A program made the translations under genes and the position numbers. A DNA stretch of 64,000 bases from an uncultured Phycisphaerales bacterium (GTDB lineage Bacteria; Planctomycetota; Phycisphaerae; Tepidisphaerales; Tepidisphaeraceae). Below the pieces are notes generated by a model. That model saw nothing but the letters and a program-made list of their open reading frames with translations. It was not told the origin of the DNA and made no database searches. The DNA lies in contig CAVWVQ010000003.1 in NCBI GenBank assembly GCA_963758525.1, positions 1,152,001 through 1,216,000 on the forward strand. The letters run 5' to 3'. This document shows, piece by piece, positions 14,108-41,465 of the stretch (position 1 is the stretch's first letter; every line of letters begins with the position of its first letter).

Positions 14108-14361
14108 CGCCGCGTACGACGAATTGGTTGCGTCGCACTAAGCCCGATAAATCGCCGTCACCCTCCAACGTTCTCCCCGAGTCCCAACAGTGGGCCCACC
14201 GAAACGGGAGTGCAGCCAGCGCTGACTTCCACGCTTCAAGTTCTCAAATCATTTCCACTTGTTTGCGTTGAGGCACCACGACTTCTGACCGATCCACAGT
14301 GGCAGGAATCATTGCGTGCCTGACGCATGCAGTTGTGGCAATAGTCATTTCGCGAGGAAGA

Positions 14362-16122: not shown

Positions 16123-16453
16123 TCCTTCAGCAATCAACCCGGCGCATCGGGAACGCGAAGACTGGGATCGGTTTGCCAGAACCCGCGTCATTCGCCTCAA
16201 CGCGGGAATCCTCGGCACCGTCTTCGGACTGCTGGGCGGACTTCTCATCTTCCTGATGACCAACGTCCTCATCCTCAAGGGGGGCCCGGTGGTCGGGCCT
16301 CATCTGGCACTGCTCGCGCAGGTCTTCATCGGATATCGCGTGACCTTCGTCGGAAGCCTCATCGGATTTGCCTACGCCGGGCTTTTTGGCTGGATGACGG
16401 GATACGTCGGCGCCACGCTGTATAACGTCGCGGTGAAAATCCGCTCGCGATAA
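16115..16453 (+). CDS. Small membrane protein paralogous to the oxidoreductase C-terminal domain
   Basis: LKGGPVVGPHLALLAQVFIGYRVTFVGSLIG matches LKGGHKIGPNLALLAQFFPGYSVTPLGSLIG. Confidence 0.8.
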   Translation: MSNPSAINPAHREREDWDRFARTRVIRLNAGILGTVFGLLGGLLIFLMTNVLILKGGPVVGPHLALLAQVFIGYRVTFVGSLIGFAYAGLFGWMTGYVGATLYNVAVKIRSR

Positions 16454-16470
16454 TCCGGCGGGCACGCTCC

Positions 16471-17790
16471 ATGCAGATCTCGCAGGCGGCATTCGACGCG
16501 GCTGTTTCCACGGTCCCGCTTCCGCGCCCTTCACGGGCGCAACGCCGTCTCTCGCCCGTACGGCGCGACACCGCCATCATGCTCGCCAGCGGAGTGGTCG
16601 TCCGCATTTGCGGGCTGGTCTTCATGATGGTGCTCTCGCGCCATCTCTCCAGGCAGGACATCGGCGTCTTCTCGTTCTACGAGGCAATTGCCGACACGCT
16701 CACGCTCATTGCCGGGTTCAGCCTGGAGATGGTGATCCTCCGGCGAATCGCCGCCGGAACGCGCGAAGACGCCATGATGAACGTGGCGCCCCTGCTGGCG
16801 TTCCGCATCATGAGCGCGCCGGTCTATCTGCTCTCCATCACAATCGTCGCGCAATTCGTGAGCGGACCGCGCTGGCTCCTGCCGTGCGTCGGCTTTTACA
16901 CGCTGATGGAGAGCGCCTTTTTTTCCTTCGGGAGCTTCTTCATTGGAGTCAAGCGCATCGGACTCAAAGCCGCCATCGAGGCCGGCGCCGAGGTGGTCTT
17001 CACTTCGCTTTTTCTCGTGGCGATCTACCGATATCCCTCGATCAAGACGCTGATCGTGCTCAGCACCGCGCACAGCGCCCTACTGCTGGGAACCGGCATT
17101 TACCTCGCGCACCGCTTCCACGGCCCGCTGCACCTGCGCTTTGCGCCGGTCGAGATGCTCCGCGCAGGCGCGCCGTTCGTCTTCATGTCATTGCTTGGAC
17201 TCCTGCAGGGCAGGATGGAAACAATGCTCCTCGGCTTCCTCGCCAGCCTGTCGGCAACCGGCGCGTATGAACTCTCGCTGAAGCTCGTCGTCGCGGCGAG
17301 CTTCATTCCTCAATCGATCAATCTTGCCGTTTATCCTTATATTGCTGCCGACGGACTCACCGCGCTGAACCGCAGCCGGCTGCTGCGAGGCTTGCTCCTC
17401 CTCGCGGCCCTGGGAGTCGGATCGGCCGGCGTGCTCTTCTTCTTTTCCAATCCCGTCGCGCGCGTTCTCTTTGGGCCGATGGCAGGCGAAGTCGCCCCGG
17501 TGTTGCGCGCGATCGCTCCCGCCCTGCTGATGCGTTTCCTCGCATCGGGAATCGCCTCGGGGGTCATTGCCATGGAAGGCGAAAAAAGTGTTTTCCGCTC
17601 GCTGGTGGCTGGAACCATCGTCGGACTCGCGGCTGATTGCCTGCTCATCCCCCATTACAAAGCCTCCGGCGCCGCTATCGGCATGATGATTTCCGCCGCC
17701 TGTCAGTGCGTGGTGACCGGCGCCGCGCTGCTCTCGCTGGTTGCCAAAGCACGCGATACCGAGGGAGACCGCGAAGCGCGGATCGCGTAG
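16471..17790 (+). CDS. Oligosaccharide flippase (Wzx/MOP superfamily)
   Basis: About 12 hydrophobic segments; LLIPHYKASGAAIG C-terminal motif. Confidence 0.8.
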   Translation: MQISQAAFDAAVSTVPLPRPSRAQRRLSPVRRDTAIMLASGVVVRICGLVFMMVLSRHLSRQDIGVFSFYEAIADTLTLIAGFSLEMVILRRIAAGTREDAMMNVAPLLAFRIMSAPVYLLSITIVAQFVSGPRWLLPCVGFYTLMESAFFSFGSFFIGVKRIGLKAAIEAGAEVVFTSLFLVAIYRYPSIKTLIVLSTAHSALLLGTGIYLAHRFHGPLHLRFAPVEMLRAGAPFVFMSLLGLLQGRMETMLLGFLASLSATGAYELSLKLVVAASFIPQSINLAVYPYIAADGLTALNRSRLLRGLLLLAALGVGSAGVLFFFSNPVARVLFGPMAGEVAPVLRAIAPALLMRFLASGIASGVIAMEGEKSVFRSLVAGTIVGLAADCLLIPHYKASGAAIGMMISAACQCVVTGAALLSLVAKARDTEGDREARIA

Positions 17791-18006
17791 GCCCCTGCCA
17801 AGTCATTTTTTTTGGAGGGGACGTACGCGAAATTCCAAGACGGCTTAATCACCTCGACATGCGAGGAGGCAAGAAAAAACTCCGCAAATTCGCACGCGTT
17901 TTTTTTGTGTCTTTTGTGTTTTTGTGGCAATCTCTCTTCGCCCCCCGCGCACGTCGATCGAGCGAGGCGCATTCTGTGCCGCACCCCGCAAGTTCTCTAT
18001 GGATTG

Positions 18007-18681
18007 TCATTCGCCATTTCGGTCGGGACGCGGTTCCGTTGTCATCGCCACGTCCGGATCGAACCGGTACGCGAAATATTCGATGTCGTCCTTGCAGGTC
18101 TGTTCGACCAGCTCGCGCCCGCGCTGCGTGTAATAGGTGCGATAATCCTTGTGCTTCGAGCGATTGAGCCTTGGCAGATTCACATTGATCCCCACCTTGC
18201 GGCACACGTGCTGGAAATCGGCGTCGAGGTTCTCAAACCGGCCAATGAAGTCGATGATCTGCTTCCCCTCCTTGTCCGCCACGAAACATTTCTGCGACCA
18301 GGTCGGATGATCGACCCGGTAGCGGAGAAATTCCTCGAAGCCGCCGAGCTTGCTGATCGCGGCATGCTCGTGATGCGCTCGCCAGCGCATGATGTAGTGA
18401 TACAACGACACCTGCAAATCCCACGGATTGCGCACGAACGCAAACTTGAAGTAGCTGTCGAAAATCTCCGACGGAAGCTTCGCGCGAATCTCGTCCGCAT
18501 GCGCGTGCGACGACAATCCCGGGTACGGGTCCGGCGGCGGGAATCCGAGCCGGCGGCGGATGAAGTTCCACAGCAGATACTCCCGCCGATCGACATATGG
18601 ATTGAGCGCCGATCGCACACTCGTGCCGGCGGTCTTGAAGATATGAACGAAGATAAACCTATGCGATGTCGAGATTTGCAC
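18007..18681 (-). CDS. Sulfotransferase family 2 protein
   Basis: FIFVHIFKTAGTS (5'-PSB), FAFVRNPWD (3'-PB), FIGRFENL. Confidence 0.88.
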   Translation of the reverse strand: MQISTSHRFIFVHIFKTAGTSVRSALNPYVDRREYLLWNFIRRRLGFPPPDPYPGLSSHAHADEIRAKLPSEIFDSYFKFAFVRNPWDLQVSLYHYIMRWRAHHEHAAISKLGGFEEFLRYRVDHPTWSQKCFVADKEGKQIIDFIGRFENLDADFQHVCRKVGINVNLPRLNRSKHKDYRTYYTQRGRELVEQTCKDDIEYFAYRFDPDVAMTTEPRPDRNGE

Positions 18682-19274: not shown

Positions 19275-20354
19275 GTGGCCACCGCTGAGCACGACGAATT
19301 TATCCGCACTCTCCTCCGCGACAACCCGATGCCCGGGCCGATCCAGATATCGCTGGAGAGGGAGCCAAACTATTTTGCCGGCGCCAAAATCGACGGCGCG
19401 GAGAGCACGACGATTCTGTCGCTTGAGAACGGCCGCGCCGTCTGCACCGGCTCGGCCAGCATCCGTATGCGATTTCTCAACGGCAGCGCGAATCGCGTCG
19501 GTTACCTCGGCGGGCTGCGGCTCGACAACTCCCATCGCGGTCATGCGTCGATCCTGCTGCGCGCGTATCGATTCTTCCGCGAGCTTCACCGCGCCCATTC
19601 AGATCCGCCGGTGGTCTATCTCTCCAGCATCCTCGCGAAAAACCTCCCGGCCATCCGGTTCCTCGAACGCAACCTCCCGGAGATGCCGACCTACACCCGG
19701 CTTGGCGATCTCGTCGCGGTGATGATCAAGGCTCGCCGTCACCGCGCCACGCTGCCACCCGGAACAACGCTGCGCACTGGCACAATTCAGGACCTCGGCG
19801 CGATCGCTGCTTTTCTCAATGCGCAAAACGCAAACTATCAGTTCGCCCCCTTGTGGACCGAGGAAAGTCTTCAATCCTGCACCGGCCTGAGCGTTTCCGA
19901 CTTCCACCTGATTTACGACAGCGACGGCGCGCTCATCGCCTGCGGCGCCCTCTGGGACCAGCGCTGCGTCCGTCAAACCGTGATCCGCGGCTACTCCCCG
20001 CGCCTGCGGCGCTTTCGGCCGATCATCAACCTCGCCGCCCGCCTGCTCCGTCGCCCCGGCGTGCAGGAAATCGGGCACGTGATTCCGCTCGCTTTTGCCT
20101 CTCACGTTGCCGCCACCAGCCCGGAATTGTTGACGTGCGTTCTGCAGTCCCTGCGTTCTGCCGCCTTCGACCGCGGGATCACGTTCCTGAACACCAGCTT
20201 CGATTCCCGCGATCCGCGCCTTGGCACGGTTCGCGACCAATTCCGCCCCGCCGAGTACCCCAGCCGGATCTATGTCGTCCGCTGGAACGACGGTGACGCC
20301 GTCGCCAGCAGCCTGGATAGCCGCCTGCTCAATCCCGATGTTTCGCTGCTCTAA
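19275..20354 (+). CDS. GNAT-like protein, paralog of 27924-28943
   Basis: EREPNYFAG, VGYLGGLRLD, GALWDQR, shared with the downstream paralog; GNAT fold is inferred. Confidence 0.65.
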   Translation: MATAEHDEFIRTLLRDNPMPGPIQISLEREPNYFAGAKIDGAESTTILSLENGRAVCTGSASIRMRFLNGSANRVGYLGGLRLDNSHRGHASILLRAYRFFRELHRAHSDPPVVYLSSILAKNLPAIRFLERNLPEMPTYTRLGDLVAVMIKARRHRATLPPGTTLRTGTIQDLGAIAAFLNAQNANYQFAPLWTEESLQSCTGLSVSDFHLIYDSDGALIACGALWDQRCVRQTVIRGYSPRLRRFRPIINLAARLLRRPGVQEIGHVIPLAFASHVAATSPELLTCVLQSLRSAAFDRGITFLNTSFDSRDPRLGTVRDQFRPAEYPSRIYVVRWNDGDAVASSLDSRLLNPDVSLL

Positions 20355-20684
20355 TTTTCATGAACCGAAGACCAAGGGATAGCAATCCGTTGGCTTTACC
20401 CCCAAATCGCTCGCTGCCTCCTGTGCGCCGGGCACATTGCAGTTGATCGCTGCGGTAGTTTCGTTCACACGAGAAAAGTACACATTTTTGGGCTCGCGAT
20501 GCGACGCTTACTGAGAACGGGGTAATGATCGCCGAGGGTGCCTGTCAGTCGCTTCGCGTCGTCGCGGAACTCAATCGCGGAACACCCGTCGCATGCGCAA
20601 GCGAAGGCTTAAGCTCCATGGGCGGCAAAACGCCTGCTCCAACGCGAATTCACATCACCGCGGCGGTACCATCGTGATTCGCGC

Positions 20685-21718
20685 ATGGAACCATCCGATC
20701 CTCCGACTCCTCGCGTTTCGCTCCCGACGGTGCCGCGGGGCTGGTACTACTTCTGTCGGGCGAGCGATCTTCGGCCAGGACCGGCGCGACTGGATTTTGG
20801 CGGCGAGCGCTATGCGGCCTTTCGCGCGCCCGATGGGCAAGCGGCAGTGCTAAACGCCCGGTGCTCGCATATGGGGGCGGACCTTTCCAGCGGAATGGTG
20901 ATCGACGGCGGGTTGCGCTGTCCTTTGCACGCCTGGGAATATTCCGCCGATGGGTCATGCCGGCGCCTGCCGGCCGGCGGAACGATCCCGCCTCTGGCCC
21001 GGCAGGCGGTGTTTCCATCGGCAGAAGTTGGGGGACACGTCTTCTTCTTCAATGCGCCGGTGGCGCGGCATCCGATGCCATTCTTTGCCGGCAAATCCTC
21101 GGACGAGCTGCTGGCGGCCGATCCGTTCGATCTGAAGATCAAAGCGCCATGGTACATGGTGGGGGCGAATGCGTTTGACCAGCAGCATTTTCGGGTGGCG
21201 CACGACCGGACACTTCTGGACACGCCGGTGGTGGAGTCGCCGGCGCCGTTGCGCAGCGCATCACCGCCAACTACGCGGTCGCCGGCAAGTCGCTGCGCGA
21301 CCGCATCACCCGGCGAGTGTCCGGGCCGCGCGTACGAATGACCGTCACGATCTGGGGCGGCACGCTGATTTTCGTGGAGGCCAGCTTCCAGCGGACCACC
21401 ACCTACGGGTTGGTCAGCGTTGCTCCAATCGACGATCACAGCGCAACGATGCGCACCATCGTCTGGGTCCAGAGAAGCAGCGGAGCGGTGGCTCGCGCGA
21501 TCATCGACCCGCTCGACGCGTGGCTGCGACGCCAATTTATTCATGCGTTCCTGATGGAAGACGCAGTGAGAAGCGACGGCGTACGGTACAATCCCGCGAC
21601 GGTCATCGAAGCTGATCGCGGTTTGGCGGCGTACATGGCGTGGCTCGAATCCATATGCGCCGTCCAACCTGATCCATCTCAATTCTGCCCGGGAGGTTCT
21701 CATGTCTGTCATTCGTGA
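20685..21718 (+). CDS. Rieske [2Fe-2S] oxygenase alpha subunit (frameshift ~21250)
   Basis: CSHMGADL...CPLHAWEY Rieske motif; NAFDQQHFRVAH mononuclear iron motif; C-terminal FLMED in second frame. Confidence 0.85.
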
Positions 21719-22325
21719 CCGCACTCGATGGCCCCTGTTGCTTGTGATGCTGTGTGCGATTCCGCTGCGGGCTCAGACGACGCAGGGCATCACTGAGCCC
21801 GATCCGCTCAAGGCGATCGCGGCGCTCCGCGGCGAGCTGATCGACAGCTTCAACAAGCGCGACATCGATCGGCTGCTGTCCAACCTCGATCCCGATGTGA
21901 TCGTCACGTGGCAAAACGGAGAAGTCTGCCGCGGACCGGGCGCGGTTCGGGACTACTACAACCGGATGATCGCGGGGCCTAATCCGGTGGTGGTGAATTT
22001 CACGTCCGATCCAACCGTGACCGACCGGCACGTTTACGGCGACTGGGCCGTCTCCTGGGGAAATCTTCACGACAAATACGAATTGAAAGATGGCGATCAC
22101 TTCGCTCTCAACAGCCTGTTCACGGCCACGATCGCGCGGCGCGGCGACGCGTGGAAAGTGGTGAGTTTTCACGCATCGGTCAACGCGTTTGAAAATCCGA
22201 TCCTTGGCATGGTCGCGAAGAAATCGGCGACGTGGGCAGGCATCATCGCCGCGGTTGTCGGCGCGCTGATCGGCATCGTGCTGGGCCGGCTTTCCGCGCG
22301 GCGCAAAGCGATTGTTCCCCAATGA
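21702..22325 (+). CDS. Exported NTF2/SnoaL-like protein with C-terminal TM anchor
   Basis: Signal peptide, FNKRDIDRLL, RGDAWKVVSFHAS, terminal hydrophobic helix followed by basic residues. Confidence 0.75.
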   Translation: MSVIRDRTRWPLLLVMLCAIPLRAQTTQGITEPDPLKAIAALRGELIDSFNKRDIDRLLSNLDPDVIVTWQNGEVCRGPGAVRDYYNRMIAGPNPVVVNFTSDPTVTDRHVYGDWAVSWGNLHDKYELKDGDHFALNSLFTATIARRGDAWKVVSFHASVNAFENPILGMVAKKSATWAGIIAAVVGALIGIVLGRLSARRKAIVPQ

Positions 22326-23278
22326 TCCGCAGTCCGGACAGCGACGAGGCCGAACAGTCGCTTCTCGACCGCGCTGGCGTGCATCCAATGTGTCTGCAAA
22401 GCCAGACGCCGGGGCCATCGGCCTGGCGCGAGCTGGTGGGCTCCCTGGGCATCGACTTCGCCACTGCAGTGCAATACTTGCGAGTCCGCGTGCATTCGCG
22501 GCATGCGGCGTTTGCCGATGCGGTGGAATCATCTCATTCGCGCACCCCGTCCGGTGACACGCCGCGGATCGTGATCATGCCGGGCGCCTTTTACCGGCAA
22601 TACCCGCGGACCGGAGCCGACGGAGAGATGGTGCGATCGATTGCCGGCGACCTGGGTTGGCCGGTCGAGCGTGTAGAGGTTGCGAGCATGGCAACCATGG
22701 CCGAAAACGCCGAGGCGCTGGCGGCACTGCTGCGCCGGCTTTCGTCTGGCCCGGTGATTCTGATTTCCCTGAGCAAGGGAGGCTCGGACGTGCGCACGGC
22801 GCTGGCCCGACCCGATCTCGCGGACGCGCTTGTGAAGGTGAGGATGTGGTTGAATCTCAGCGGAATCGTCACCGGAACGGCGCTTGTCGGTTGGCTGCAA
22901 TCGCACCCGCTAAACTATTGGGGCGTGCGATCGCTGCTCGCGCTGCGCCGCCAGTCGTTTGCCGCTGTTCGCGAGCTGCGGCGCGAGCCGGGGGCGCCGC
23001 TGTCCATGCCACTGACGCTGCCGGCCCATCTCACAGCAGTGCATGTGCTGGGCTTTCCGCTGATCGGGCATCTCAGCGACAACTGGGCCCGCCGCGGGCA
23101 CGCGCGGCTCGCGCCGCTGGGCCCCAACGACGGCGGCGGAATTCTCCTGGCGGATTGCGAGAGCCTGCCGGGCCAAATCTATCCAGCGTGGGGCGCGGAT
23201 CACTATCTCCGTCCCGCCTGGATCAGGAAGCGCCTGGCGACGATCGTGTCTCAGTCCGGGGTCGTTGCAATGACATAG
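22322..23278 (+). CDS. Alpha/beta-hydrolase fold protein
   Basis: IMPG oxyanion region, SLSKGG nucleophile elbow, NDGG, ADH. Confidence 0.7.
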   Translation: MIRSPDSDEAEQSLLDRAGVHPMCLQSQTPGPSAWRELVGSLGIDFATAVQYLRVRVHSRHAAFADAVESSHSRTPSGDTPRIVIMPGAFYRQYPRTGADGEMVRSIAGDLGWPVERVEVASMATMAENAEALAALLRRLSSGPVILISLSKGGSDVRTALARPDLADALVKVRMWLNLSGIVTGTALVGWLQSHPLNYWGVRSLLALRRQSFAAVRELRREPGAPLSMPLTLPAHLTAVHVLGFPLIGHLSDNWARRGHARLAPLGPNDGGGILLADCESLPGQIYPAWGADHYLRPAWIRKRLATIVSQSGVVAMT

Positions 23279-23987
23279 CAGTCGCGTCCGGCGCAGAGGC
23301 GGCGGCCGACACTCCAGCGATGTTTGGGGCGCTTTTCCGCCATGCCAGCGCATGCGCTGCCAGCCCAAGCACAGCACCGCCAAGCGTGTCGACGGCATAG
23401 TGCTCCTTGGTAGCCAGCGTGGCATAGCAAATTGCCGCGCCCCAGATGATGCACAACGCGGCGCAGGCGCGCGGCAGTTGTCCGCGAAAGCTCCGCCAGC
23501 CGAAAGCGAGGGTGTACACCAGCAAACCTACGTGCAAAGACGGAAAAGAATTGAGCGTGGCATCGTACTGGATCAGCAGCCAGCACATGCCGTGTGCATC
23601 CGGCATCGGGGGGCGAGGCGCGCGGATTGGATAGAGGATGAAGATCGCGAAACTGACAGCCGACAGCAAGACCAATCCGATGGCATACCGCCGCAAATCT
23701 TCACGGCGATCCGCGAGCCAGGGAATCAGATTGATCGGGATATACAGCGACTGATAGACCCAGATCCAAGTATAGGGATGAAATCCGATTGCCCTGTCGA
23801 GCGCGGTGAGCGGCAGCCGATGCTCCGGCATCAGCGGATGGAACCCGATCAGGAAGTAGGCTGAACAAAACAGGACTCCCGCGGCGATCTGTAACCCCGC
23901 CTTGAGCCTCCAGTGCAACCGAAGGCGCAGCGCCGCACTGCGGGCAAAGGAACGCCAGCTCGGCCTATTGAATGACCCGGCCGGCAT
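23223..23987 (-). CDS. PAP2 superfamily membrane enzyme (inositol-phosphorylceramide synthase-like)
   Basis: P...PR, NSFPSLH and EHYAVD motifs, multiple TM helices. Confidence 0.8.
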   Translation of the reverse strand: MPAGSFNRPSWRSFARSAALRLRLHWRLKAGLQIAAGVLFCSAYFLIGFHPLMPEHRLPLTALDRAIGFHPYTWIWVYQSLYIPINLIPWLADRREDLRRYAIGLVLLSAVSFAIFILYPIRAPRPPMPDAHGMCWLLIQYDATLNSFPSLHVGLLVYTLAFGWRSFRGQLPRACAALCIIWGAAICYATLATKEHYAVDTLGGAVLGLAAHALAWRKSAPNIAGVSAAASAPDATAMSLQRPRTETRSSPGAS

Positions 23988-24918
23988 ACTTGTTCTCGAC
24001 CCGCTGATCGGTGCGCCGCGGGCCGTGCCACATGCGAAGGTAGGCCAATGGCAAAAAGCCGCGCGGCTCAACTGCTTCGGTCCCTATTCGCGGGAGATGC
24101 ACCCAGGGGACGGTGGGATGTTCGTGATGCACGCGATGCCAGTTGTGATTCAGCCAGATCGCGTCGATCGGTGCGAACAGTTTCAAGTTGCGCGCGCCGC
24201 GGGTGACGTGCCGCTCGGTGGCATAATGATGCACATATTGCATCGCCGACCACGAAAAACCGAACGCTCCATACAGTGCCAGATCATTCAGCAGCGGCAC
24301 GCGGAGGAGCAGGAGAATGCACGCGTGCAGCACGATGGCGGCAATCCCTTCGCATCTGATCCACCGCAGATGCGCCGGGTTGAACGATTCGAGAAACGCC
24401 GCGCCAGGCCGGTCGAACTTCACGTGGCGTTCCACTTTGAAATGCCGGCGGTCGAGCAGAAACGGAAATGCGGCCGCAACGACATTGCTCACCACGACCA
24501 GCAGATAATACAGGCCGGTGAGAATCCCGATCCAGGCCATCCACCTCCAGACCGGATTGTCTCCCTCGAAGTAGAGATCGAACGCCTCGTCATCGGAGCG
24601 GTTGCGAAGGTGATGTCCGATGTGCCCCTGGCGCAGGAGATGGAACGGGGCGGGGAAGAACAACGCCATGAGGATGCCCGCTGCCTCGTTGACCCTTCGA
24701 TCCGGGAAGAGCATGGCGTGCTCGGCTTCGTGGATGATCGAATAAACGGAGTTCATCAGGATGGCAAATCCAACGGCCAGCCCCGCGACGGGCCAGAAGC
24801 CGTGGAGTCGTTTGGCGGCAGTGAAACAGACCGCCAGCGCGACCAGCTGCGCAGCGATGATGAGCGCATTGAAAGCGGTGGGGATCCGATGGTTTGCCGC
24901 GGCGGAATTGCGAATCAT
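23965..24918 (-). CDS. Membrane fatty acid desaturase family protein
   Basis: His boxes HEAEH, HIGHH, HRVHH; AAGGAG upstream of ATG at 24918. Confidence 0.88.
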   Translation of the reverse strand: MIRNSAAANHRIPTAFNALIIAAQLVALAVCFTAAKRLHGFWPVAGLAVGFAILMNSVYSIIHEAEHAMLFPDRRVNEAAGILMALFFPAPFHLLRQGHIGHHLRNRSDDEAFDLYFEGDNPVWRWMAWIGILTGLYYLLVVVSNVVAAAFPFLLDRRHFKVERHVKFDRPGAAFLESFNPAHLRWIRCEGIAAIVLHACILLLLRVPLLNDLALYGAFGFSWSAMQYVHHYATERHVTRGARNLKLFAPIDAIWLNHNWHRVHHEHPTVPWVHLPRIGTEAVEPRGFLPLAYLRMWHGPRRTDQRVENKYAGRVIQ

Positions 24919-25022
24919 TCGAAAACCATTCTCCTTTGGATCGACCAATATGGTACGCTTGGGATCGCACCTGGCGGTAGCGAAAAATGGCAGGTCCCCG
25001 GCAGATTGGGGTTCGTTCGCCC

Positions 25023-26426
25023 ATGTCATCGCATTCGAAGAAGCTTCGCGTTGTTTTAATTTCTCCCAAGGGACCGCTCTACCGCCATCGCGGCGGACTT
25101 TTCAAGCAATCGCTCCGCTATCAGCCGCTGACGCTGACGACGCTGGCCGCGCTGCTTCCGCCGGAACTGCCGATCGAGCTGACGCTGATCGACGAGGGAA
25201 TCGCCGACGTCCCCGACCAAATAGACGCGGACCTGGTCGGACTGACGGTGATCACCGGCACCGCGCCGCGCGCTTACGAGCTGAGCGATCGGTTCCGCGC
25301 GGCAGGCATTGCCGTCGTGCTGGGCGGCCCGCATGTCACGCTCATTCCCGAAGATGCCCAGCCGCACGCCGACGCGGTCGTCGTCGGCTACGCCGAAGAC
25401 AGTTGGCCCCAACTGCTTCGCGATTTCGCTGCCGGTGCATTGCGACCGCGTTACGACCAGTCGCCGGGGCTCGATCTGGCCGATCGTCCTTTTGCGCGTC
25501 GCGATCTTCTGCCGCGCTGGCGATACCTCACCAGCGACGTCTTCGAAGCAACGCGCGGCTGCGTTCACAACTGCGATTTCTGCGTGGTTCCGTCCGCGTG
25601 GGGACGCAAACCGTTGCAGAAGCCGGTGGAGGACGTGGTGCGCGACATCCGCGCCGAGAGAGCGAGGAAGCTGATCTTCGTGGATCTGAATCTCATCGCG
25701 GATCGCGAATATGCCGTGCGGCTGTTTACTGCACTGGTGCCGCTGGGCGTGCAATGGTACGGCCTGTCGACGGTGCTATTGACCGAAGATCGGCCGCTGC
25801 TGGATCTGGCTGCGCGAAGCGGGTGCCGCGGGTTGCTGATGGGGCTGGAGTCGATTTCGCCGGAGAATCTCCGCGCCAGTCGAAAGGGTTTCAACTCGCC
25901 CCAGCGGTATGCCGAAGTCGTTCGACGGCTGCACGATCGCGGGATCGCGCTGCAGGGATGCTTCGTCTTCGGACTCGATGGCGACGATCCGGATGTCTTC
26001 CTCAAGACCTCGCAGTTTGCCGTCGACGTGCGCATCGATCTGCCCCGATTTGCGATCGTCACGCCCTTCCCCAACACCGAGCTCTATCGGCGCCTCGTCA
26101 GCGAGGGACGCATCCTCACGAGAAACTGGGAACTGTACGACGGGCAACATGTCGTTTTTCAGCCGAAGCAAATGAGCGTTCAGGAGTTGCAGGACGGCAC
26201 CGAAGCCGCGTGGAAACACGCTTACAGCGCACGGTCGATTCTCAAACGTCTCGCGCACTCGCCCGCGCCGTGGTCGGTGCGCCTGGCGACAAATCTGGGC
26301 TACCGCTTTTACGCGAATCATCTGAGCCGTTTCTATAACTGCGACTGGATCATCGGCAGATCGCCACGGCGCGGCCGCGCCCCGTTTGTCGCGGGGCTAC
26401 CGACGGTGCAAGAGAGGCCGGCGTGA
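25023..26426 (+). CDS. B12-binding radical SAM enzyme 1
   Basis: N-terminal cobalamin-binding region (VVLGGPHVT), CVHNCDFC, TPFPNT. Confidence 0.9.
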   Translation: MSSHSKKLRVVLISPKGPLYRHRGGLFKQSLRYQPLTLTTLAALLPPELPIELTLIDEGIADVPDQIDADLVGLTVITGTAPRAYELSDRFRAAGIAVVLGGPHVTLIPEDAQPHADAVVVGYAEDSWPQLLRDFAAGALRPRYDQSPGLDLADRPFARRDLLPRWRYLTSDVFEATRGCVHNCDFCVVPSAWGRKPLQKPVEDVVRDIRAERARKLIFVDLNLIADREYAVRLFTALVPLGVQWYGLSTVLLTEDRPLLDLAARSGCRGLLMGLESISPENLRASRKGFNSPQRYAEVVRRLHDRGIALQGCFVFGLDGDDPDVFLKTSQFAVDVRIDLPRFAIVTPFPNTELYRRLVSEGRILTRNWELYDGQHVVFQPKQMSVQELQDGTEAAWKHAYSARSILKRLAHSPAPWSVRLATNLGYRFYANHLSRFYNCDWIIGRSPRRGRAPFVAGLPTVQERPA

Positions 26427-27781
26427 AACTGACGATTATTCATCCGTGCATCGGACGTCATGCGGGAGACCGCAAATACATCCGCACCTGGCAGATGGAG
26501 CCCCTGCCCGCCGCCGCGATCGCGGGACTGACGCCGCGCGACGTGGACGTGACGTTTTACGACGATCGGCTCGAATTGATCCCATTCGACGAACCGGCGG
26601 ATCTCGTGGCGATGAGCGTTGAAACATACACCGCAAAGCGCGCGTATCAGATCGCCAGCGAATATCGCCGGCGCGGCGTGCCGGTGGTGATGGGCGGCTT
26701 CCATGCGTCGCTGCTGCCGGACGAAGTCAGCCGCCACGCGGAATCCGTGGTTGTCGGGGAGGCCGAGGCGATCTGGCCGCGCATCATCGACGACGCGCGC
26801 CACGGTCGGCTGGAAAAGATCTACCGCCAGAGCGGCCGCCCGTCCCTCGCGGGCATGAAGCCCGACCGCGCGATCTTCCGCGGGAAGCGATATCTGCCGA
26901 TCGGGCTGGTGGAGGCGGGCCGCGGGTGTCATTTCAAGTGCGAGTTCTGCGCGGTGCAAACCGTCTTCGGCGCGACGCAGACGCGCCGGCCGATCGACGA
27001 CATCCTGCGCGAAGTGGCGGAGGTGCGGCACTACCGCCGGCTCTTCTTCTTCGTCGACGACAACATCACGTCCAACATGCGGCAGGCGAAGGATTTCTTC
27101 CGCGCACTGATCCCGCTGAAGATACGCTGGGTGAGTCAGGCGAGCATTAACGCCGCCCACGACGAGGAATTTCTCGACCTGCTGGTGCGCAGCGGCTGCA
27201 TGGGCGTGCTGATCGGATTCGAAAGCCTGAACCCCGCGAATTTAAAGGAGATGAACAAGTCGTTCAACACGATGCGCGGCGGATTCGCCAAGGCGCTTGC
27301 CAACCTCCGCCGTCACCGGTTGCGCGTCTATGGCACGTTCATCTTCGGATACGACCGCGACACCCGCGACAGTTTCACCGAGACGGTCGATTTCGCGCAA
27401 GAGCATGCCCTTTACATTGCCGCGTTCAATCACCTCACGCCGTTTCCCGGAACCCCGCTGTATGCGCGCCTGGAATCGGAGGGCCGGCTGCGATACCCCA
27501 GTTGGTGGCTGGATGACCGGTATCGCTACAACAATATTCCCTTCACGCCCGCGTCGATGAGCGCGGCGGATCTTCAGCGATATTGCCTGCTCGCTCGCCG
27601 GGCGTTTTATTCCTGGCCGAGCATCGTCCGACGCGGCTTCGACGCGGTGAACCGGGACGATGCGTTCATGTGGAAAAACTTCTATCTCATTAACGCAATG
27701 CATCGATCCGACGTGAGCATGCGCGACGAATATCCCCTTGGAGATGAAGCCTGGAAAGGGCCGTTCCTGTCGGCAAATTGA
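26423..27781 (+). CDS. B12-binding radical SAM enzyme 2
   Basis: VVMGGFHAS, CHFKCEFC, FVDDN, TPFPGT; GTGA overlap with enzyme 1. Confidence 0.9.
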   Translation: MKLTIIHPCIGRHAGDRKYIRTWQMEPLPAAAIAGLTPRDVDVTFYDDRLELIPFDEPADLVAMSVETYTAKRAYQIASEYRRRGVPVVMGGFHASLLPDEVSRHAESVVVGEAEAIWPRIIDDARHGRLEKIYRQSGRPSLAGMKPDRAIFRGKRYLPIGLVEAGRGCHFKCEFCAVQTVFGATQTRRPIDDILREVAEVRHYRRLFFFVDDNITSNMRQAKDFFRALIPLKIRWVSQASINAAHDEEFLDLLVRSGCMGVLIGFESLNPANLKEMNKSFNTMRGGFAKALANLRRHRLRVYGTFIFGYDRDTRDSFTETVDFAQEHALYIAAFNHLTPFPGTPLYARLESEGRLRYPSWWLDDRYRYNNIPFTPASMSAADLQRYCLLARRAFYSWPSIVRRGFDAVNRDDAFMWKNFYLINAMHRSDVSMRDEYPLGDEAWKGPFLSAN

Positions 27782-27923
27782 TGCGATGGGACACTTTGCG
27801 GAGGACTGAGGGATTCATGACTGTCATGGAGACAAAGCCTCGAGCGATCGATGGCGTTGCGGTCTTCCGGGCGCCTGCGCAGCAGATGACGAGCAGCTCC
27901 GCCGTCTGCTTCGAGAGAACCCG

Positions 27924-28943
27924 ATGCCGGCCGGGATTTCGCTCTCGATGGAGCGGGAGCCGAATTACTTCGCCGGAGCCGCGATGGACGGCTCGGAACA
28001 TCAAACCATCGTGGCGATCGAGGATGGGCGCGTCGTTTGTGCCGGCACGATCGGCGTCAGTTCCCGGTTTCTCAACGGCGTTGCGGCACGGGTTGGATAT
28101 CTCAGCGGACTGCGTCTGGATCGCGCCTGCCGAAGCCGGCCGTCCATCCTGCGGCAAGGGTATCAGGTGTTCCATGATCTTCACCGGCGCGCTGGCGAAC
28201 CCGCCGTCTATCTGACCAGCATCTTTTCTGCCAATGCACGCGCGATCCGATTTTTCGAGCGCAATCTCCCGTGGATGCCGACCTACCGCAGGATCGCGGA
28301 TTTTGTCACGGTTGTCCTTCGCGTGCGTCCGCAACTGCGCGAGGCCGACGGCGCCGCGAGCGGGTGCGCCGCCGCAGAATCGGATTTGCCGCTCATCACC
28401 GATCTGCTCAATCGGCAGAATGAACAGCTTCAATTTGCCCCGGTATGGAGTGTCGAGAAGCTCAAGCGATGCAGCGCATTACAGGCGGCCGATTTTCGCC
28501 TGGCCCGCGATCGCGACGATCACCTTGCCTGGTGCGCCGCGGTCTGGGATCAGCGCGCCGTCCGGCAAACCGTTGTCCGCGGCTACCCGCCGATGCTGCG
28601 ACGGATGCGTCCGCTCGTTAATTTCGGTGCGCGCCTTCTGCGAACGCCGCGGCTCCCTGCGGTCGGCAAGACGATTCCGCTCGCGTTTGCGTCGCATATC
28701 GCGGCAACGCCCGACTCGCTGCCGGCTGCCCTCCGGTCGCTCGAGACTGCCGCGAGCCAGCGCGGCATTGAATATCTGACGGTCGGATTTGACGCCCGCG
28801 ACCCGCGGCTTGGCGTTGTTCGCAGGCATTTCAAAGGACGCGAGTATTCGAGCCGGATCTATCTCGTTTATTGGGAAGACGGCGCCCAATGCGCCGAAGC
28901 CGTCGCCGACGGTATCGTGGCGCCGGAAGCTGCGCTCCTATGA
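27924..28943 (+). CDS. GNAT-like protein, paralog of 19275-20354
   Basis: EREPNYFAG, VGYLSGLRLD, AVWDQR; true start probably further upstream across a frameshift (DDEQLRRLLRENPM precedes the ATG in frame). Confidence 0.65.
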   Translation: MPAGISLSMEREPNYFAGAAMDGSEHQTIVAIEDGRVVCAGTIGVSSRFLNGVAARVGYLSGLRLDRACRSRPSILRQGYQVFHDLHRRAGEPAVYLTSIFSANARAIRFFERNLPWMPTYRRIADFVTVVLRVRPQLREADGAASGCAAAESDLPLITDLLNRQNEQLQFAPVWSVEKLKRCSALQAADFRLARDRDDHLAWCAAVWDQRAVRQTVVRGYPPMLRRMRPLVNFGARLLRTPRLPAVGKTIPLAFASHIAATPDSLPAALRSLETAASQRGIEYLTVGFDARDPRLGVVRRHFKGREYSSRIYLVYWEDGAQCAEAVADGIVAPEAALL

Positions 28944-29665
28944 CTCAGACCATCGCCACCACGCACCGGTTGATGCCGCGCGCCGCGCTCGCGCCGGACG
29001 AACTGGCGGAAATGCATGGTCTGCTCGACGCCTATTTCCGCGGCGTGTCGCAGCGACAATTCCTTGGCGATCTGCGGGAAAAGAATTGGGTGATCCTGAT
29101 CGAACGGGGCGGCCGGATCGTCGGATTCTCCACGATCCTGGCGTATCAGACCGAATTTGAAGGCGAGCCGCTGGCGGTCATCTATTCCGGCGACACCGTC
29201 GTGGCACGCGAGGCCTGGAACAGTTCGGCACTGGCGCGCGGGTGGATCGAATCGGTGGCGGCGCTGCGGCCGCTCTATCCCAGCGGTCGCTTCTTCTGGC
29301 TGCTTCTGACGTCCGGTTTCCGCACCTACCGGCATCTGCCCCTGTTCTGGGAAGAGTTCTATCCCCGCTTCGACGCGCCGACGCCACCGGCAACTCAAGC
29401 GCTCATCGATCATCTTTCCGCCGAGCGCTTCGGACCGTGCTGGGACCGCGCCGCCGGCGTGGTGCGATTCGCCCATCCGCAGCCGTTGCGCGACGGGCTG
29501 GCCGAGATTCCGGTCAGTCGCTCCGCTGATCCGCACATCGCATTTTTTGCCGCCCGCAATCCCGCGCACGCGAACGGCGACGAACTCGTCTGCCTGACCG
29601 AGCTGTCCCCCGGCAATCTCACCAGCGCCGGCCGCCGGATGGCATCAGCAGTTCCGATATGGTGA
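28940..29665 (+). CDS. Uncharacterised GNAT-like protein
   Basis: IVGFST, YSGDTVV, WLLLTSGFRTYR, NPAHANGDELVC; coupled to neighbours on both sides. Confidence 0.6.
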   Translation: MTQTIATTHRLMPRAALAPDELAEMHGLLDAYFRGVSQRQFLGDLREKNWVILIERGGRIVGFSTILAYQTEFEGEPLAVIYSGDTVVAREAWNSSALARGWIESVAALRPLYPSGRFFWLLLTSGFRTYRHLPLFWEEFYPRFDAPTPPATQALIDHLSAERFGPCWDRAAGVVRFAHPQPLRDGLAEIPVSRSADPHIAFFAARNPAHANGDELVCLTELSPGNLTSAGRRMASAVPIW

Positions 29666-31239
29666 AGACGCAACTCGCCAATGCCGCCTGGTTGCTCGCC
29701 AGCGCTCCTGCCTACGGGGCATTCACGCGTGCGCTCAATGATCCGGGCGCCGCGGCAGGGCAGGTGTTGCGACGGATTCTGCGCGACGGCGCCAACAGCG
29801 AGTTCGGCAGGGAACATGGATTTTCGCAGATTCGCACGCCGGAGCAATTTGCCCAAAACGTGCAGCCGCGCGATTACGACCAGATGTCCCCCTGGATCGA
29901 GCGCATCGCCCGCGGCGAAAAAAACGTGCTGGCGCCCGGCGAAGTGCGACGCCTTGTTCCCACCAGCGGCTCTGCCGCCGCCCGAAAGCTGATTCCGTAC
30001 AACGATGCCCTGCAGCGGGAGCTCAACTGCGCGATCGCGCCCTGGATTTACGATCTGCATCTGCGGCATCCCAAGGCAATGCGGGGCAGCGCCTACTGGT
30101 CGGTGACGCCGGCGGCTCCTGTTGCCCGGGAGACTTCAAAGATCCCGATCGGATTCGATGACGACTCGGCCTATCTGGGCGGCTGGCGCCGACGGTTGAT
30201 CGACGCCACGCTGGCCGTCCCCGGCGCGTTTCGCGAGGTCGCATCGATATCCGCGCTGCGATACCTCACGCTCCTGTCCCTTTTGCGCCGCCGCGATCTG
30301 AGTCTGATATCGGTCTGGCATCCTTCATTTCTCGGCCTGCTGCTCGACGAGATGCACGCGCGCCGTGCGGAATTGATTGCCGATGTGAGGAACGGCACCT
30401 GCGAGGTTGCCAATGAGATTCCACCGCACATCGTACCGTTCGCGGTCTCTCGGCCGGATCGGCGCCGCGCGAACCAGATCGCCCGGGCGAACGGGGTCGC
30501 GGAGATCTGGCCCAATCTCGCCGCCATCAGTTGCTGGGCGGACGCGAATGCCTCGGCGGCGGCTGCCAACCTCGGCGCGCTGTTTCCCGGCGTCGTGCTG
30601 CAGCCAAAGGGACTTCTCGCCACAGAGGGATTTGTTTCCATTCCGTTTGCGGGCCATCATCCGTTGGCGATTCGGTCCCACTATTTCGAATTTCTCGACG
30701 ATCGCGGACGTCTGTTCCTGCCGTGCGATCTGCGGATCGGCCAAACCTTCACGCTCCTGCTCACCACCGGCGGCGGACTCTATCGCTACCGTCTCAACGA
30801 CATGGTTCGCGTAGACGGATTCGTCGGGCGAACACCGTCGATTCGCTTCATCGGCAAGGCCGCGCTCGTCTCCGATCTGCGGGGAGAGAAATTGACCGAC
30901 GGCTTCGTCGCGACCGTGATGCAGCGCCTGCCGGTGCGAGCTCCCTTCATGCTGCTCGCCCCTGAAGAGGATGGGAACGATTGCCGCTACACTCTGTATC
31001 TCGCGTGCGCCGCCCCTGCGTCACCGCTGGACTTGGTGCTCGACGAGTTGCTCTGCGAAAATCCCCAATACGCATATTGCCGGCGGCTGGGGCAATTGAA
31101 GCCCTGCCGGGTTCACCCTGTGCGGGAAGACGCCTACGACATGTATTGCCGGCGGCTCCAGTCGCTCGGCCAACGCATCGGCGACATCAAACCCGCGTCG
31201 CTCAGCGCGCTGACCGGCTGGAGCATTTGGTTCCAGTGA
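29659..31239 (+). CDS. GH3 family adenylate-forming acyl-amido synthetase
   Basis: PTSGS...KLIPY, GLLATEG, TTGGGLYRYRLND, GEKL. Confidence 0.85.
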   Translation: MVKTQLANAAWLLASAPAYGAFTRALNDPGAAAGQVLRRILRDGANSEFGREHGFSQIRTPEQFAQNVQPRDYDQMSPWIERIARGEKNVLAPGEVRRLVPTSGSAAARKLIPYNDALQRELNCAIAPWIYDLHLRHPKAMRGSAYWSVTPAAPVARETSKIPIGFDDDSAYLGGWRRRLIDATLAVPGAFREVASISALRYLTLLSLLRRRDLSLISVWHPSFLGLLLDEMHARRAELIADVRNGTCEVANEIPPHIVPFAVSRPDRRRANQIARANGVAEIWPNLAAISCWADANASAAAANLGALFPGVVLQPKGLLATEGFVSIPFAGHHPLAIRSHYFEFLDDRGRLFLPCDLRIGQTFTLLLTTGGGLYRYRLNDMVRVDGFVGRTPSIRFIGKAALVSDLRGEKLTDGFVATVMQRLPVRAPFMLLAPEEDGNDCRYTLYLACAAPASPLDLVLDELLCENPQYAYCRRLGQLKPCRVHPVREDAYDMYCRRLQSLGQRIGDIKPASLSALTGWSIWFQ

Positions 31240-31405: not shown

Positions 31406-32134
31406 TCAAAACTGATCCCAAATCGGCTGGAACCAATTTGGGACCTCATCCGACTTCAGCTCGATCCGTGTCCCGTCCGTGATTTCCGCAAAGTACCAGG
31501 ATTCTTCTCCGCTGGTGTCGAATAGGAACGCCCGATCGGCGAAGCGGATAGAATCGCGCAGCAGCGCCAGCGATCGATGGTACCGCGAGACGATTTTATC
31601 CTCGGGTACGTCGTGCCCTCCTCCCGAAACACGATTCTTGACGCGCTGAACATTGATGGCGGGATCTTCGGTCGCGACGTAGTAGAGGTAAGTGCGGAAT
31701 CCGCGGACTTTGGCATTTGAAAGAAGATCGACCTTGTCGCGAGCCGACATCACCGTCTCAAACGAAAACGATCTTGACGCTGCCATTGCTTTTTGCCGAA
31801 GGAAGTCCGCAAGCACCGAGGCGTAATAGGAATTTATTTGCAGAGGTCCGAACTCGAGCGTATCGGATCGAATCTCAATCGCGTGGGCGGCCGAGTCGAG
31901 TTGCTTGCGCTGAAGGAACGAGGACGAGGTAAAATGGCTTCGGATTTCTTCCGTCGTCGTACGCAGTTCGAAGGGTTTCAACGACAGCACGCCGGTTTCG
32001 CGAATGGTTGTTTCCAAATCGTCCGGATTAATGTAAATGCCAAACCATTCCGGGGTTCGGTTGAGTCCATTTTTCACCGTCGTTTTTCCTGATCCATTCG
32101 GACCAGCGAACATTCGAAGCCGCGGAGGATTCAC
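31406..32134 (-). CDS. Zeta-toxin-like P-loop kinase
   Basis: FAGPNGSGKTT, INPDD, FSFETV, RVSGGGHDVP. Confidence 0.8.
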   Translation of the reverse strand: MNPPRLRMFAGPNGSGKTTVKNGLNRTPEWFGIYINPDDLETTIRETGVLSLKPFELRTTTEEIRSHFTSSSFLQRKQLDSAAHAIEIRSDTLEFGPLQINSYYASVLADFLRQKAMAASRSFSFETVMSARDKVDLLSNAKVRGFRTYLYYVATEDPAINVQRVKNRVSGGGHDVPEDKIVSRYHRSLALLRDSIRFADRAFLFDTSGEESWYFAEITDGTRIELKSDEVPNWFQPIWDQF

Positions 32135-32349
32135 TTTGATGCTCGTTTGAGGCGCGTGGCGACCTTCCGGCGCGGCGGGAGCTTTCGAACCACTGTCATG
32201 CCGGATAGGTCGAGGCGGACCAGCGTGCTGTCGATCACAACCAGAATCGGCAGACCCGAATGGATGGCGCGGCGCGTAGCGATATTTAGAGCCTGCACGG
32301 CCGACTCTGTCACGTCTGCTTCGTTCGAATCCATGTCGATCTCGGCCAT
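32131..32349 (-). CDS. Small protein, possible antitoxin partner
   Basis: AGGAG upstream of ATG; GTGA overlap with the kinase gene. Confidence 0.6.
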   Translation of the reverse strand: MAEIDMDSNEADVTESAVQALNIATRRAIHSGLPILVVIDSTLVRLDLSGMTVVRKLPPRRKVATRLKRASK

Positions 32350-32816: not shown

Positions 32817-32936
32817 TCTCCTCCAAACATCCTGCTACCGGCAAAACGTGCGCATTGAATCGGGCAGTTGGGTTCGTTAGGCTGCGCGCCGCACGAAATT
32901 TCATCGCGTTCATCGCCGAGTCATGGAGGACTGGCC

Positions 32937-41364: not shown

Positions 41365-41404
41365 TGCGAACGCGGATGCGCCGGCCGCCGTTGAAAGGCT
41401 GGAG

Positions 41405-41465
41405 ATCTCAAAGCTCTGAAATATCTCGAATCTGAAATCTCAGCTCTCAAATCTGAAATCTCAAA
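41405..41465. repeat. Degenerate AAATCT(C/G) heptamer array
   Basis: GAATCTGAAATCTCAGCTCTCAAATCTGAAATCTCAAA. Confidence 0.75.

Follow-up and report, generated by a model that had tools for sequence, protein, structure and literature searches.

A widespread gene cluster with a GH3, GNAT and N-myristoyltransferase-fold core, proposed to make an amide-linked membrane lipid

Eleven genes in the window (the whole 64,000-nucleotide stretch of DNA that was analysed) form a real cluster that is spread over many bacterial groups and has a fixed core, consisting of a GH3 ligase, a single-domain GNAT (GNc) and a tandem GNAT of predicted N-myristoyltransferase (NMT) fold (GNb). The radical SAM pair is common but dispensable and the membrane-tailoring arm is swappable, so the eleven genes, which had been read as one set, do co-occur but are not a fixed unit beyond these three. 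We give slightly better than an even chance to the proposal that the cluster makes a carrier-free, amide-linked membrane lipid. The sequence-only reading had suggested an unusual amide-linked, desaturated and methylated or cyclised lipid or signal molecule; an amide-linked, oxidised and radically modified lipid is still the best reading, with structure and product as proposals. Neither the literature nor NCBIfam model scores yielded a described pathway that matches, in agreement with that earlier view.

All eleven genes were confirmed at the positions in Table 1, with coding-like GC3 values of 0.70-0.79. Pfam recognised two Radical_SAM plus B12-binding proteins, FA_desaturase, PAP2/PAP2_3, Rieske and SnoaL/NTF2, with weak GNAT matches for all but one of the three GNAT-like genes, while AlphaFold models with fold searches predicted GNAT folds for GNc and one tandem GNAT; together these agreed with every family previously named, although the earlier title had left out the alpha/beta-hydrolase and the NTF2 protein. 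Hydrophobic segments occur in the desaturase, PAP2 and NTF2 proteins. The block had been described as tightly overlapping, and co-directional overlaps were indeed found at 5 or 6 of the 10 junctions, depending on the PAP2 start; however, it comprises three units rather than one operon, since the desaturase and PAP2 genes run on the minus strand, away from rSAM1 and towards the hydrolase gene. The Rieske gene is broken by a frameshift near 21250 and is in one frame in the closest relative (L160). Considering that the squalene-hopene cyclase gene of this genome is also split and the downstream alpha-2-macroglobulin gene is in pieces, the break is probably an assembly error, though no public contig spans it; the 5' end of GNb is possibly frameshifted as well. 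Three GNAT-like proteins are present, as reported, but GNa is a local duplicate of GNb (51% identical), accounting for the two tandem-GNAT copies of this genome, and is not found at the corresponding place in L160.

Table 1. Positions in the window, strand and features of the eleven cluster genes.
Gene	Positions	Strand	Remarks
GNa, tandem GNAT of NMT-fold family	19275..20354	+	start codon uncertain
Rieske non-haem iron oxygenase	20685..21718	+	CxH...CxxH cluster motif; DxxHxxxxH site; frameshift-split
NTF2/SnoaL-fold protein	21702..22325	+	signal-peptide-like N-terminus, C-terminal membrane anchor
Alpha/beta-hydrolase	22322..23278	+	invariant Ser151, Asp270, His294
PAP2/PAP2_3 membrane protein	23223..23987	-	start ATG 23987 or TTG 23918
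Membrane His-box di-iron desaturase/hydroxylase	23965..24918	-	Pfam FA_desaturase
rSAM1, B12-binding radical SAM	25023..26426	+	CxxxCxxC; DUF4070 under cut-off range of named families
rSAM2, B12-binding radical SAM	26423..27781	+	34% identical to rSAM1
GNb, tandem GNAT, predicted NMT fold	27873..28943	+	homology from 27873, first in-frame ATG 27924
GNc, single GNAT domain with C-terminal extension	28940..29665	+	unnamed family
GH3 adenylating amide ligase	29659..31239	+	three nucleotide-binding motifs recognisable

Co-occurrence in other genomes, which had been named as the point on which the idea would stand or fall, was far above chance, with the same genes together in at least six phyla. 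Of the GH3 loci, 39 were fully flanked and came from several phyla; among these, GNc was present in 38, a tandem GNAT in 37 and at least two radical SAM genes in 36. Where a locus held both GNc and GH3 (76 loci), GNc was the gene immediately before GH3 in 70. PAP2 (30/39) and the membrane-anchored NTF2 gene (26/39) were less constant, and the hydrolase was present in 18/39 only. These counts come from loci that are related rather than independent, some of them duplicated between searches, and from profiles built on the counted loci themselves. Searches from other anchors converged on the same genes: GH3 was reached in 15 of 22 long desaturase-anchored loci, and at least 18 of 27 GNc-anchored loci held the set together. 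Loci L002, L020, L057 and L061, from Planctomycetota and Verrucomicrobiota, show exactly the same divergent layout, and a near-complete cluster occurs in Citrobacter. The core was found without radical SAM genes in Acinetobacter baumannii, Burkholderia arboris and 7 of 27 loci of the planctomycete phylum. Variable neighbours are of lipid type (MMPL, fatty-acid hydroxylase, PlsC-type acyltransferase, ICMT/PEMT and P450). Related GH3 genes occur in at least 564 species-level genomes. Among relatives the cluster is patchy, being present in 7 of 41 and in neither of two from the same genus.

The absence of PKS, NRPS, ACP or precursor peptide genes noted earlier was borne out: ACP, fatty acyl-AMP ligase and PKS/NRPS genes were found neither among families present in at least 4 of 80 loci nor among Pfam-scanned neighbours. 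For ORFs under 70 aa, covered by the short-ORF comparison alone, none of 1428 short ATG ORFs from 108 loci was shared beyond 2-4 close loci, and the few shared at that level were shadows, fragments or toxin-antitoxin genes.

The GH3 protein, the only one in this genome, belongs to the acyl-acid amido synthetase family by its domains and motifs, and ATP-dependent amide formation is predicted. Its N-terminal, middle and C-terminal domains (PF03321, PF23571 and PF23572) scored above cut-off, with E 1e-39 for the first, plant GH3 structures were matched at E 2e-29, and the three nucleotide-binding motifs are conserved in 36 homologs. The motif 1 serine, S103, is kept in at least 90% of homologs and is equivalent to S115 of OlsH, which is essential there (PMC12493201). 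That work concerns an ornithine-lipid pathway in Singulisphaera acidiphila that, like the present cluster, is ACP-free, occurs in planctomycetes and includes a GH3 with recognisable nucleotide-binding motifs. Its GH3 is encoded with an alpha/beta-hydrolase, whereas here a serine hydrolase accompanies GH3 in the window but in only 18/39 fully flanked loci; OlsI is a hydrolase working as an O-acyltransferase, encoded beside a GH3. However, our GH3 falls far short of the OlsH model (35.4 bits against an NF052613 cut-off of 620, with 0/5 cluster-bearing genomes passing), no OlsG-type methyltransferase accompanies it, and the cluster has in addition two GNATs, two B12 radical SAM enzymes, oxygenases, PAP2 and NTF2. 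By this comparison the cluster is analogous to the OlsH/OlsI pathway and not a member of it.

The predicted model of GNb (pLDDT 91.7) gave human NMT1 as its top Foldseek matches (TM 0.59-0.60) and yeast NMT as its best VIA match (Z 19.9, rmsd 3.4 over 276 residues), with residues 1-339 aligned to yeast chain residues 105-455, as given by the first and last residues of the alignment. Homologs of GNb end in [ED]xxx[LV]-stop (66/66 and 20/20 full-length sequences); the last residue is scattered in five control families. Human NMT1 uses its C-terminal carboxylate as catalytic base (PMC7048800). The model places GNb as a predicted tandem GNAT with its C-terminus positioned as in NMT, and GNb and NMT1 are alike in fold, in alignment to the last residue and in a fixed hydrophobic C-terminus. 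By sequence GNb is not an NMT: it had no NMT Pfam match, no PDB sequence was matched at E up to 1, it differs from eukaryotic NMT1 in identity (8-11%), and no protein substrate is in sight. Since the bacterial tandem GNAT MAB_4324 (Z 17.7) was only about 2 Z units behind NMT and Eis was also aligned to its C-terminus, a preference for long acyl chains is not established by the fold.

Class B radical SAM enzymes working on lipids include HpnP, HpnR, HpnJ, the ladderane-cluster enzyme and GrsA/B. rSAM1 and rSAM2 share their architecture, a B12-binding domain (46.8 bits in rSAM1, above cut-off; 31.1 against 32.1 in rSAM2, just under) with a CxxxCxxC radical SAM domain, and are assigned to class B from sequence; the arrangement as a pair differs. 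By model score neither belongs with HpnJ, HpnR, the ladderane enzyme or BchE, all NCBIfam models being far below cut-off. The best NCBIfam scores were 74 and 90 bits, and no HpnP or GrsA/B model was among the matches listed. The nearest solved relative is AprD4, a dehydratase rather than a methylase. The pair is 58-83% identical across phyla, compared with 44-57% for GH3, and the Citrobacter plasmid carries five radical SAM paralogs.

The PAP2 protein scored above cut-off for PF14378 and has invariant PSLH and HxxxD motifs but is missing the conserved Lys/Arg of phosphatase motif 1, a pattern which we take to be that of PAP2_3 phosphotransferases resembling inositol-phosphoceramide synthase. 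A standard ceramide acceptor is unlikely, since no serine palmitoyltransferase passed NF047599, the one model used, in any of five cluster-bearing genomes (2 of 14 controls passed; this genome is ~91% complete). The NTF2 family has no invariant catalytic acid, and this one of the eleven supposed enzymes may not be an enzyme; it is probably a periplasmic lipid-binding protein. The hydrolase, which matches the esterase MGS0156 (E 6e-12), is a putative O-acyltransferase by analogy with OlsI. It was present in 62 of 197 loci and a hexapeptide acyltransferase in 29, never together, and this mutual exclusion suggests that both do the same O-acylation step. Where desaturase, NTF2 and PAP2 genes were all present (73 loci), the hydrolase/hexapeptide split was 50/16/0/7, and the label switches five times on a quick desaturase tree, at least two of the switches being forced by well-supported branches; the hydrolase profile overlooked a probable distant hydrolase in B. 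arboris.

We propose that GH3 would adenylate a carboxylic acid with ATP and join it to an amine, as in OlsH, that the NMT-fold GNAT, with its C-terminal carboxylate as base, would use acyl-CoA to acylate a free primary amine, and that GNc would carry out a second acyl transfer, so that the core would yield an amino-acid or diamine scaffold bearing more than one acyl group. The hydrolase, or elsewhere the hexapeptide acyltransferase, would add an ester-linked chain; the desaturase and the Rieske oxygenase, joined at some loci by an AurF-type di-iron enzyme, would oxidise chain or head group; and the radical SAM enzymes would methylate, or possibly cyclise, unactivated carbons. At the membrane, PAP2 would move or remove a phospho head group, and in the periplasm the product would be bound by the tethered NTF2 protein. 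The AurF-type partner, seen at other loci and found neither in the window nor in this genome, scored above cut-off for PF11583, has a ferritin-like fold and aligns with AurF at invariant E74, E111/H114, E170, H198, E202 and H205. Scaffolds of the kind envisaged are exemplified by glycine and serine-glycine lipids (GlsB/GlsA, flavolipin L654 and phosphatidic-acid conjugate L1256), which show that N- and O-acylation can go together with a second amino acid and a phosphatidyl group on a single amino lipid (PMC12971839); these come from Bacteroidota via OlsF-related transferases and are set beside the cluster by scaffold alone. More tentatively, and with doubt prevailing, the three core enzymes might be an undescribed carrier-free module for a ceramide-like amide lipid made without serine palmitoyltransferase, with chains remodelled by the radical SAM enzymes and a phospho head group added by PAP2, which would be a hitherto unrecognised class of membrane lipid, common among the Verrucomicrobiota, Acidobacteriota and Planctomycetota of soils, with a secreted acyl amide from the same core in A. 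baumannii.

Counting against a membrane lipid, the desaturase is nowhere nearby in 12 of 39 fully flanked loci, and a close homolog is missing genome-wide in four of five genomes tested (three no match, one weak). Conceivably, though this is rather unlikely, the product of the core is a small acyl-amide molecule for secretion (a signal, a surfactant or an antibiotic), tailored by the other genes. The A. baumannii triad, with no membrane enzymes and interleaved with genes for EmrA, EmrB and a TolC-type protein, fits such a molecule better; also in its favour are the patchy distribution, the seven radical-SAM-free loci with FG-GAP/ASPIC-UnbV proteins, of which two carry an RnfD-like fusion, the B. 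arboris locus with three desaturase domains, Rieske and a ferritin-like enzyme, and the metal-ligand pattern of the AurF-type partner. However, no conserved transporter was found next to GH3 in the 80 most similar loci, and the frequency of PAP2 and anchored NTF2 genes also argues for the membrane.

It is improbable that the target of the cluster is an isoprenoid (hopanoid, sterol-like or carotenoid) which its enzymes tailor and provide with an amide group. This genome has a squalene-hopene cyclase, MMPL, P450, ICMT and sterol-desaturase-family neighbours were found, five Acidobacteriota loci have a PAP2 with a long C-terminal domain that has aspartate-rich motifs but gave no squalene-synthase match in Pfam, and among named families the Rieske protein comes closest to the sterol demethylase SdmA, though with 40 bits against a cut-off of 600. 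Yet the cyclase was above cut-off in only three of five cluster-bearing genomes, the other two being single-chromosome assemblies, and HpnP/HpnR/HpnJ-type models scored under 100 bits for the radical SAM enzymes, against cut-offs of at least 570 for HpnJ and HpnR. Moreover, A. baumannii, which has the core, and Citrobacter, which has a near-complete cluster, are not known as hopanoid producers. Slightly less credit still is due to lipidation of a protein or ribosomal peptide by the NMT-fold enzyme, using a fatty acid modified by the others: the GNb fold and C-terminal architecture match protein NMT, and peptides are substrates of several B12 radical SAM families (ApyD and others gave weak matches), but a substrate encoded near the cluster is opposed by the lack of a conserved short ORF in the 108 loci, and no conserved peptidase or peptide exporter was found near GH3 loci. 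A chance patchwork of unrelated genes, for which the division into three transcription units, the two suspected frameshifts and the extra GNAT copy might speak, is scarcely credible and counted as already refuted by synteny from three anchors and the recurring divergent layout.

Given the number of genomes with a related GH3 and the presence of the core in nearly all of the closest ones, the cluster represents a common pathway without a known product. It offers an entry point to three questions, namely the products of most bacterial GH3 enzymes, a matter that PMC12493201 calls open, the possible use by bacteria of an NMT-fold acyltransferase with a C-terminal catalytic base, and the action of a strongly conserved B12 radical SAM pair on a lipid. 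Since cultured carriers are available (Chthoniobacter flavus, Citrobacter portucalensis, on a plasmid, and Burkholderia arboris), the pathway is open to experiment now. If the proposed membrane lipid is real, a new and abundant lipid of this kind could be a soil biomarker.

All eleven genes that the sequence-only reading had called in the cluster proved to be real (see table). Their layout comprises three units. The left one, on the plus strand, converges on the two-gene minus-strand unit, PAP2 and desaturase, which is divergent, across a gap of ~100 bases, from a five-gene unit running from rSAM1, the first of two B12-binding radical SAM enzymes, to GH3. GC content of the cluster matches that of its surroundings, the nearest relatives of GH3 come from Phycisphaerales and Tepidisphaeraceae, which makes a planctomycete host probable, and the tandem GNAT GNa is a local duplicate of the second tandem GNAT, GNb. 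A promoter/terminator scan of the cluster gave signal at or below chance. A frameshift interrupts the Rieske gene, and GNb may carry another at its 5' end; since the Rieske gene is intact in the nearest relative and other genes of the genome are split too, both are probably assembly errors. Three soil DNA runs gave short pieces only, none covering the frameshift sites.

Features of the window and of related loci (L-numbers, with coordinates within each locus)
Location	Coordinates	Strand	Feature
Window	12184-18681		Glycosyltransferase, methyltransferase, FAD oxidoreductase (PRK07208, holin-like membrane tail), flippase, sulfotransferase; probably a surface-glycan locus with no relation to the cluster
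Window	19275-31239		Eleven-gene cluster
Cluster genes 1-4		+	GNa, Rieske oxygenase, NTF2 protein, alpha/beta-hydrolase
Cluster genes 5-6		-	PAP2, desaturase
Cluster genes 7-11		+	rSAM1, rSAM2, GNb, GNc, GH3
Window	near 21250		Rieske frameshift
Window	31406-32134	-	P-loop ATPase (Pfam zeta toxin match, E 3e-7), lower-GC stretch
Window	about 32131-32349	-	Short ORF upstream of the ATPase; possibly a toxin-antitoxin pair with it
Window	32868-41419	+	Alpha-2-macroglobulin gene, broken into three probably by frameshifts, then PBP1C-type transglycosylase/transpeptidase
L084, Acinetobacter baumannii NZ_CP064203.1	7165-14838		Triad with EmrA/EmrB/TolC-type genes; amidase and LuxR-type regulator adjoining
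L081, Citrobacter portucalensis plasmid NZ_CP134684.1	19914-32009		Five B12 radical SAM paralogs; alpha-2-macroglobulin locus upstream (such a gene also lies just 3' of the cluster in the window)
L083, Azospirillum brasilense NZ_CP059450.1	5543-12837		Distant GNc homolog, GH3 absent; neighbours two ABC transporters, band-7 protein, male-sterility-type reductase, SET-domain protein
L127	12838-15534		FG-GAP/ASPIC-UnbV protein
L134	14084-17170		FG-GAP/ASPIC-UnbV protein
L135	14966-17683		FG-GAP/ASPIC-UnbV protein
L137	3968-6913		FG-GAP/ASPIC-UnbV protein
L141	13616-16594		FG-GAP/ASPIC-UnbV protein
L143	1445-4231		FG-GAP/ASPIC-UnbV protein
L147	3142-5562		FG-GAP/ASPIC-UnbV protein
L036	3726-5261		PAP2 fusion
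L041	14045-15562		PAP2 fusion
L042	11639-13225		PAP2 fusion
L053	11739-13241		PAP2 fusion
L070	5074-6525		PAP2 fusion

A GH3 profile search of species-level genomes found at least 564 relatives; the best 80 were retained, and their record titles place them in Planctomycetota, Verrucomicrobiota, Acidobacteriota, Gemmatimonadota, Pseudomonadota and Binatia. Among the 39 of these 80 loci that reach 20 kb, the single GNAT GNc was present in 38, GNb in 37 and a radical SAM in 37 (two or more in 36), with PAP2 in 30, desaturase in 27, NTF2 protein in 26, Rieske in 20 and hydrolase in 18; an AurF-type di-iron enzyme also recurs in 15 of them and a hexapeptide-repeat membrane protein in 6, and the window has neither. 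When neighbourhoods were anchored on the desaturase instead (22 of 80 loci, those of at least 8 kb), the gene set was unchanged: PAP2 20, NTF2 19, Rieske 18, radical SAM 16 and GH3 15. Both anchors therefore bear out the expectation that these genes co-occur in other genomes. The radical SAMs are the best-conserved members (58-83% identity vs 44-57% for GH3), and the rSAM1 and rSAM2 counts in the best-80 synteny comparison include cross-matches between the two paralogs. Distribution is patchy: a sample of 401 genomes of the phylum had GNc in 28, and GNb was present in 7 of 41 relatives and in neither of two from the same genus. The viral contigs and E. coli genomes searched gave no match. Toxin-antitoxin-like or transposase-like small genes are repeatedly inserted between operon genes, with gene order kept (L011, L022, L041, L047, L059, L063, L068 and L070).

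GH3, GNc and GNb constitute a triad that also occurs without radical SAMs. In A. baumannii it is interleaved with genes of an EmrA/EmrB/TolC-type pump, which may export the product of the triad; passages of PMC10812440 treat two EmrAB-like pumps of this species, possibly other than the one at L084, without mention of GH3. In Burkholderia arboris, the radical-SAM-free triad is accompanied by a PAP2-desaturase fusion, two further desaturases, a Rieske protein, a ferritin-like protein and a probable hydrolase. Seven of 27 loci in the phylum sample likewise had the triad free of radical SAMs, its neighbours being MMPL, fatty-acid hydroxylase, PlsC-type acyltransferase and ASPIC/UnbV proteins. On the C. 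portucalensis plasmid, five radical SAMs accompany the triad, together with PAP2, NTF2 and desaturase. Of five genomes tested that have no desaturase beside the operon, four had no close desaturase anywhere and one carried the entire tailoring arm at another chromosomal site. The triad is accordingly the fixed part, to which the radical SAM pair and the membrane arm are added as modules. FG-GAP/ASPIC-UnbV proteins lie beside seven radical-SAM-free triads, and two of these proteins are fused to an RnfD-like domain. The arrangement resembles the UnbU/UnbV pair of enediyne clusters and may mark a chemically distinct sub-type. GNc by itself, with no GH3 in the vicinity, was seen in Azospirillum and at several loci that are short or unrelated.

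GH3 keeps all three nucleotide-binding motifs, including the serine described as essential in OlsH, the GH3 amide ligase of the Singulisphaera acidiphila ornithine-lipid pathway (PMC12493201), but at 35 bits against a cut-off of 620 it lies below the threshold of the OlsH family model. OlsH itself showed no activity in living E. coli and worked only in extracts, given free fatty acid. The predicted GNb model (pLDDT 91.7) has N-myristoyltransferases as its best structural matches and aligned with the yeast enzyme through to that enzyme's final residue, a similarity of predicted fold without membership by sequence. Full-length GNb homologs end in [ED]xxx[LV]-stop in 66 of 66 cases in a first set and 20 of 20 in a second, and distant members from Citrobacter, Burkholderia and Acinetobacter end in the same terminal alignment column, unlike control families, whose C-terminal ends were scattered. 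Human NMT1 uses its C-terminal carboxylate as catalytic base (PMC7048800). Since Eis-type and other bacterial tandem GNATs also matched the model (Z 15-18), the evidence supports putative acylation of an amine through an NMT/Eis-like mechanism and not myristoylation in particular. GNc consists of a single GNAT domain plus an extension, with no close relative of solved structure. LasI was its best structural match (Z 12.2) but tied with many GNATs, and we therefore do not claim GNc as an AHL synthase. A search for longer or fused GNc forms gave no genuine one, the single candidate being a frameshifted read-through that was discarded; such absence is weak evidence. The ESM Atlas returned only GNAT clusters that were unnamed or generic.

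Among the remaining enzymes, the alpha/beta-hydrolase has an invariant Ser-Asp-His triad, while PAP2 has both distal motifs and is missing the conserved basic residues of motif 1, a pattern as compatible with a phosphotransferase as with a phosphatase. Thermoanaerobaculia have PAP2 as a fusion with a domain of ~280 residues that carries aspartate-rich motifs, and truncated forms of this fusion occur at L028, L030 and L059. His boxes are present in the desaturase, which scored above cut-off for no named family; the NTF2 protein combines a signal-like N-terminus with a C-terminal anchor and shows no invariant acid. Against every named model, rSAM1 and rSAM2 scored far below the cut-offs, and the closest relative of solved structure was AprD4 (E 2e-19).

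Across 197 loci the hydrolase occurred in 62, the hexapeptide protein in 29 and both together in none, and the 73 loci where desaturase, NTF2 and PAP2 all occur had the hydrolase alone in 50, the hexapeptide protein alone in 16 and neither in seven, counts in which loci are related and duplicated, some contigs are truncated, the profiles derive from the same loci and a distant B. arboris hydrolase was missed. In a quick tree built from desaturases, covering the 83 loci that bear either label and whose desaturase reaches 230 aa, the label switches five times, at least two of them forced by well-supported branches. Since hexapeptide-repeat proteins are usually acyltransferases and the two proteins were never found together, the simplest reading, by analogy, would be that each adds an acyl chain. 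OlsI, the alpha/beta-hydrolase of the ornithine-lipid pathway, adds such a chain (PMC12493201).

We lean towards the view that GH3, GNb and GNc assemble, without a carrier, a membrane lipid that is amide-linked and bears several acyl chains. Tailoring would follow, by O-acylation, oxidation, methylation or cyclisation through radical chemistry, and transfer of a head group; we infer each chemical step from the genes, folds and linkage observed. That the product is instead a secreted acyl amide seems rather unlikely. Tailoring of an isoprenoid is improbable, a squalene-hopene cyclase scoring above cut-off in just three of five carriers, and lipidation of a protein or peptide slightly more so, considering that no peptide proved conserved across 108 loci. 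A chance assemblage of genes can practically be dismissed. A link to standard sphingolipids was unsupported.

In mode of action, the proposed lipid assembly most resembles OlsH/OlsI (PMC12493201), although GH3 falls outside that family by sequence. As in the sequence-only reading, the set could not be matched to a described pathway: in the open literature we found no description of the cluster, and locus-tag lookups, for which the Acinetobacter tags were partly extrapolated, may miss reports. The pathway is real, widespread and uncharacterised; it would belong with amino-lipid biosynthesis, and there is a fair chance that it represents a new lipid class.
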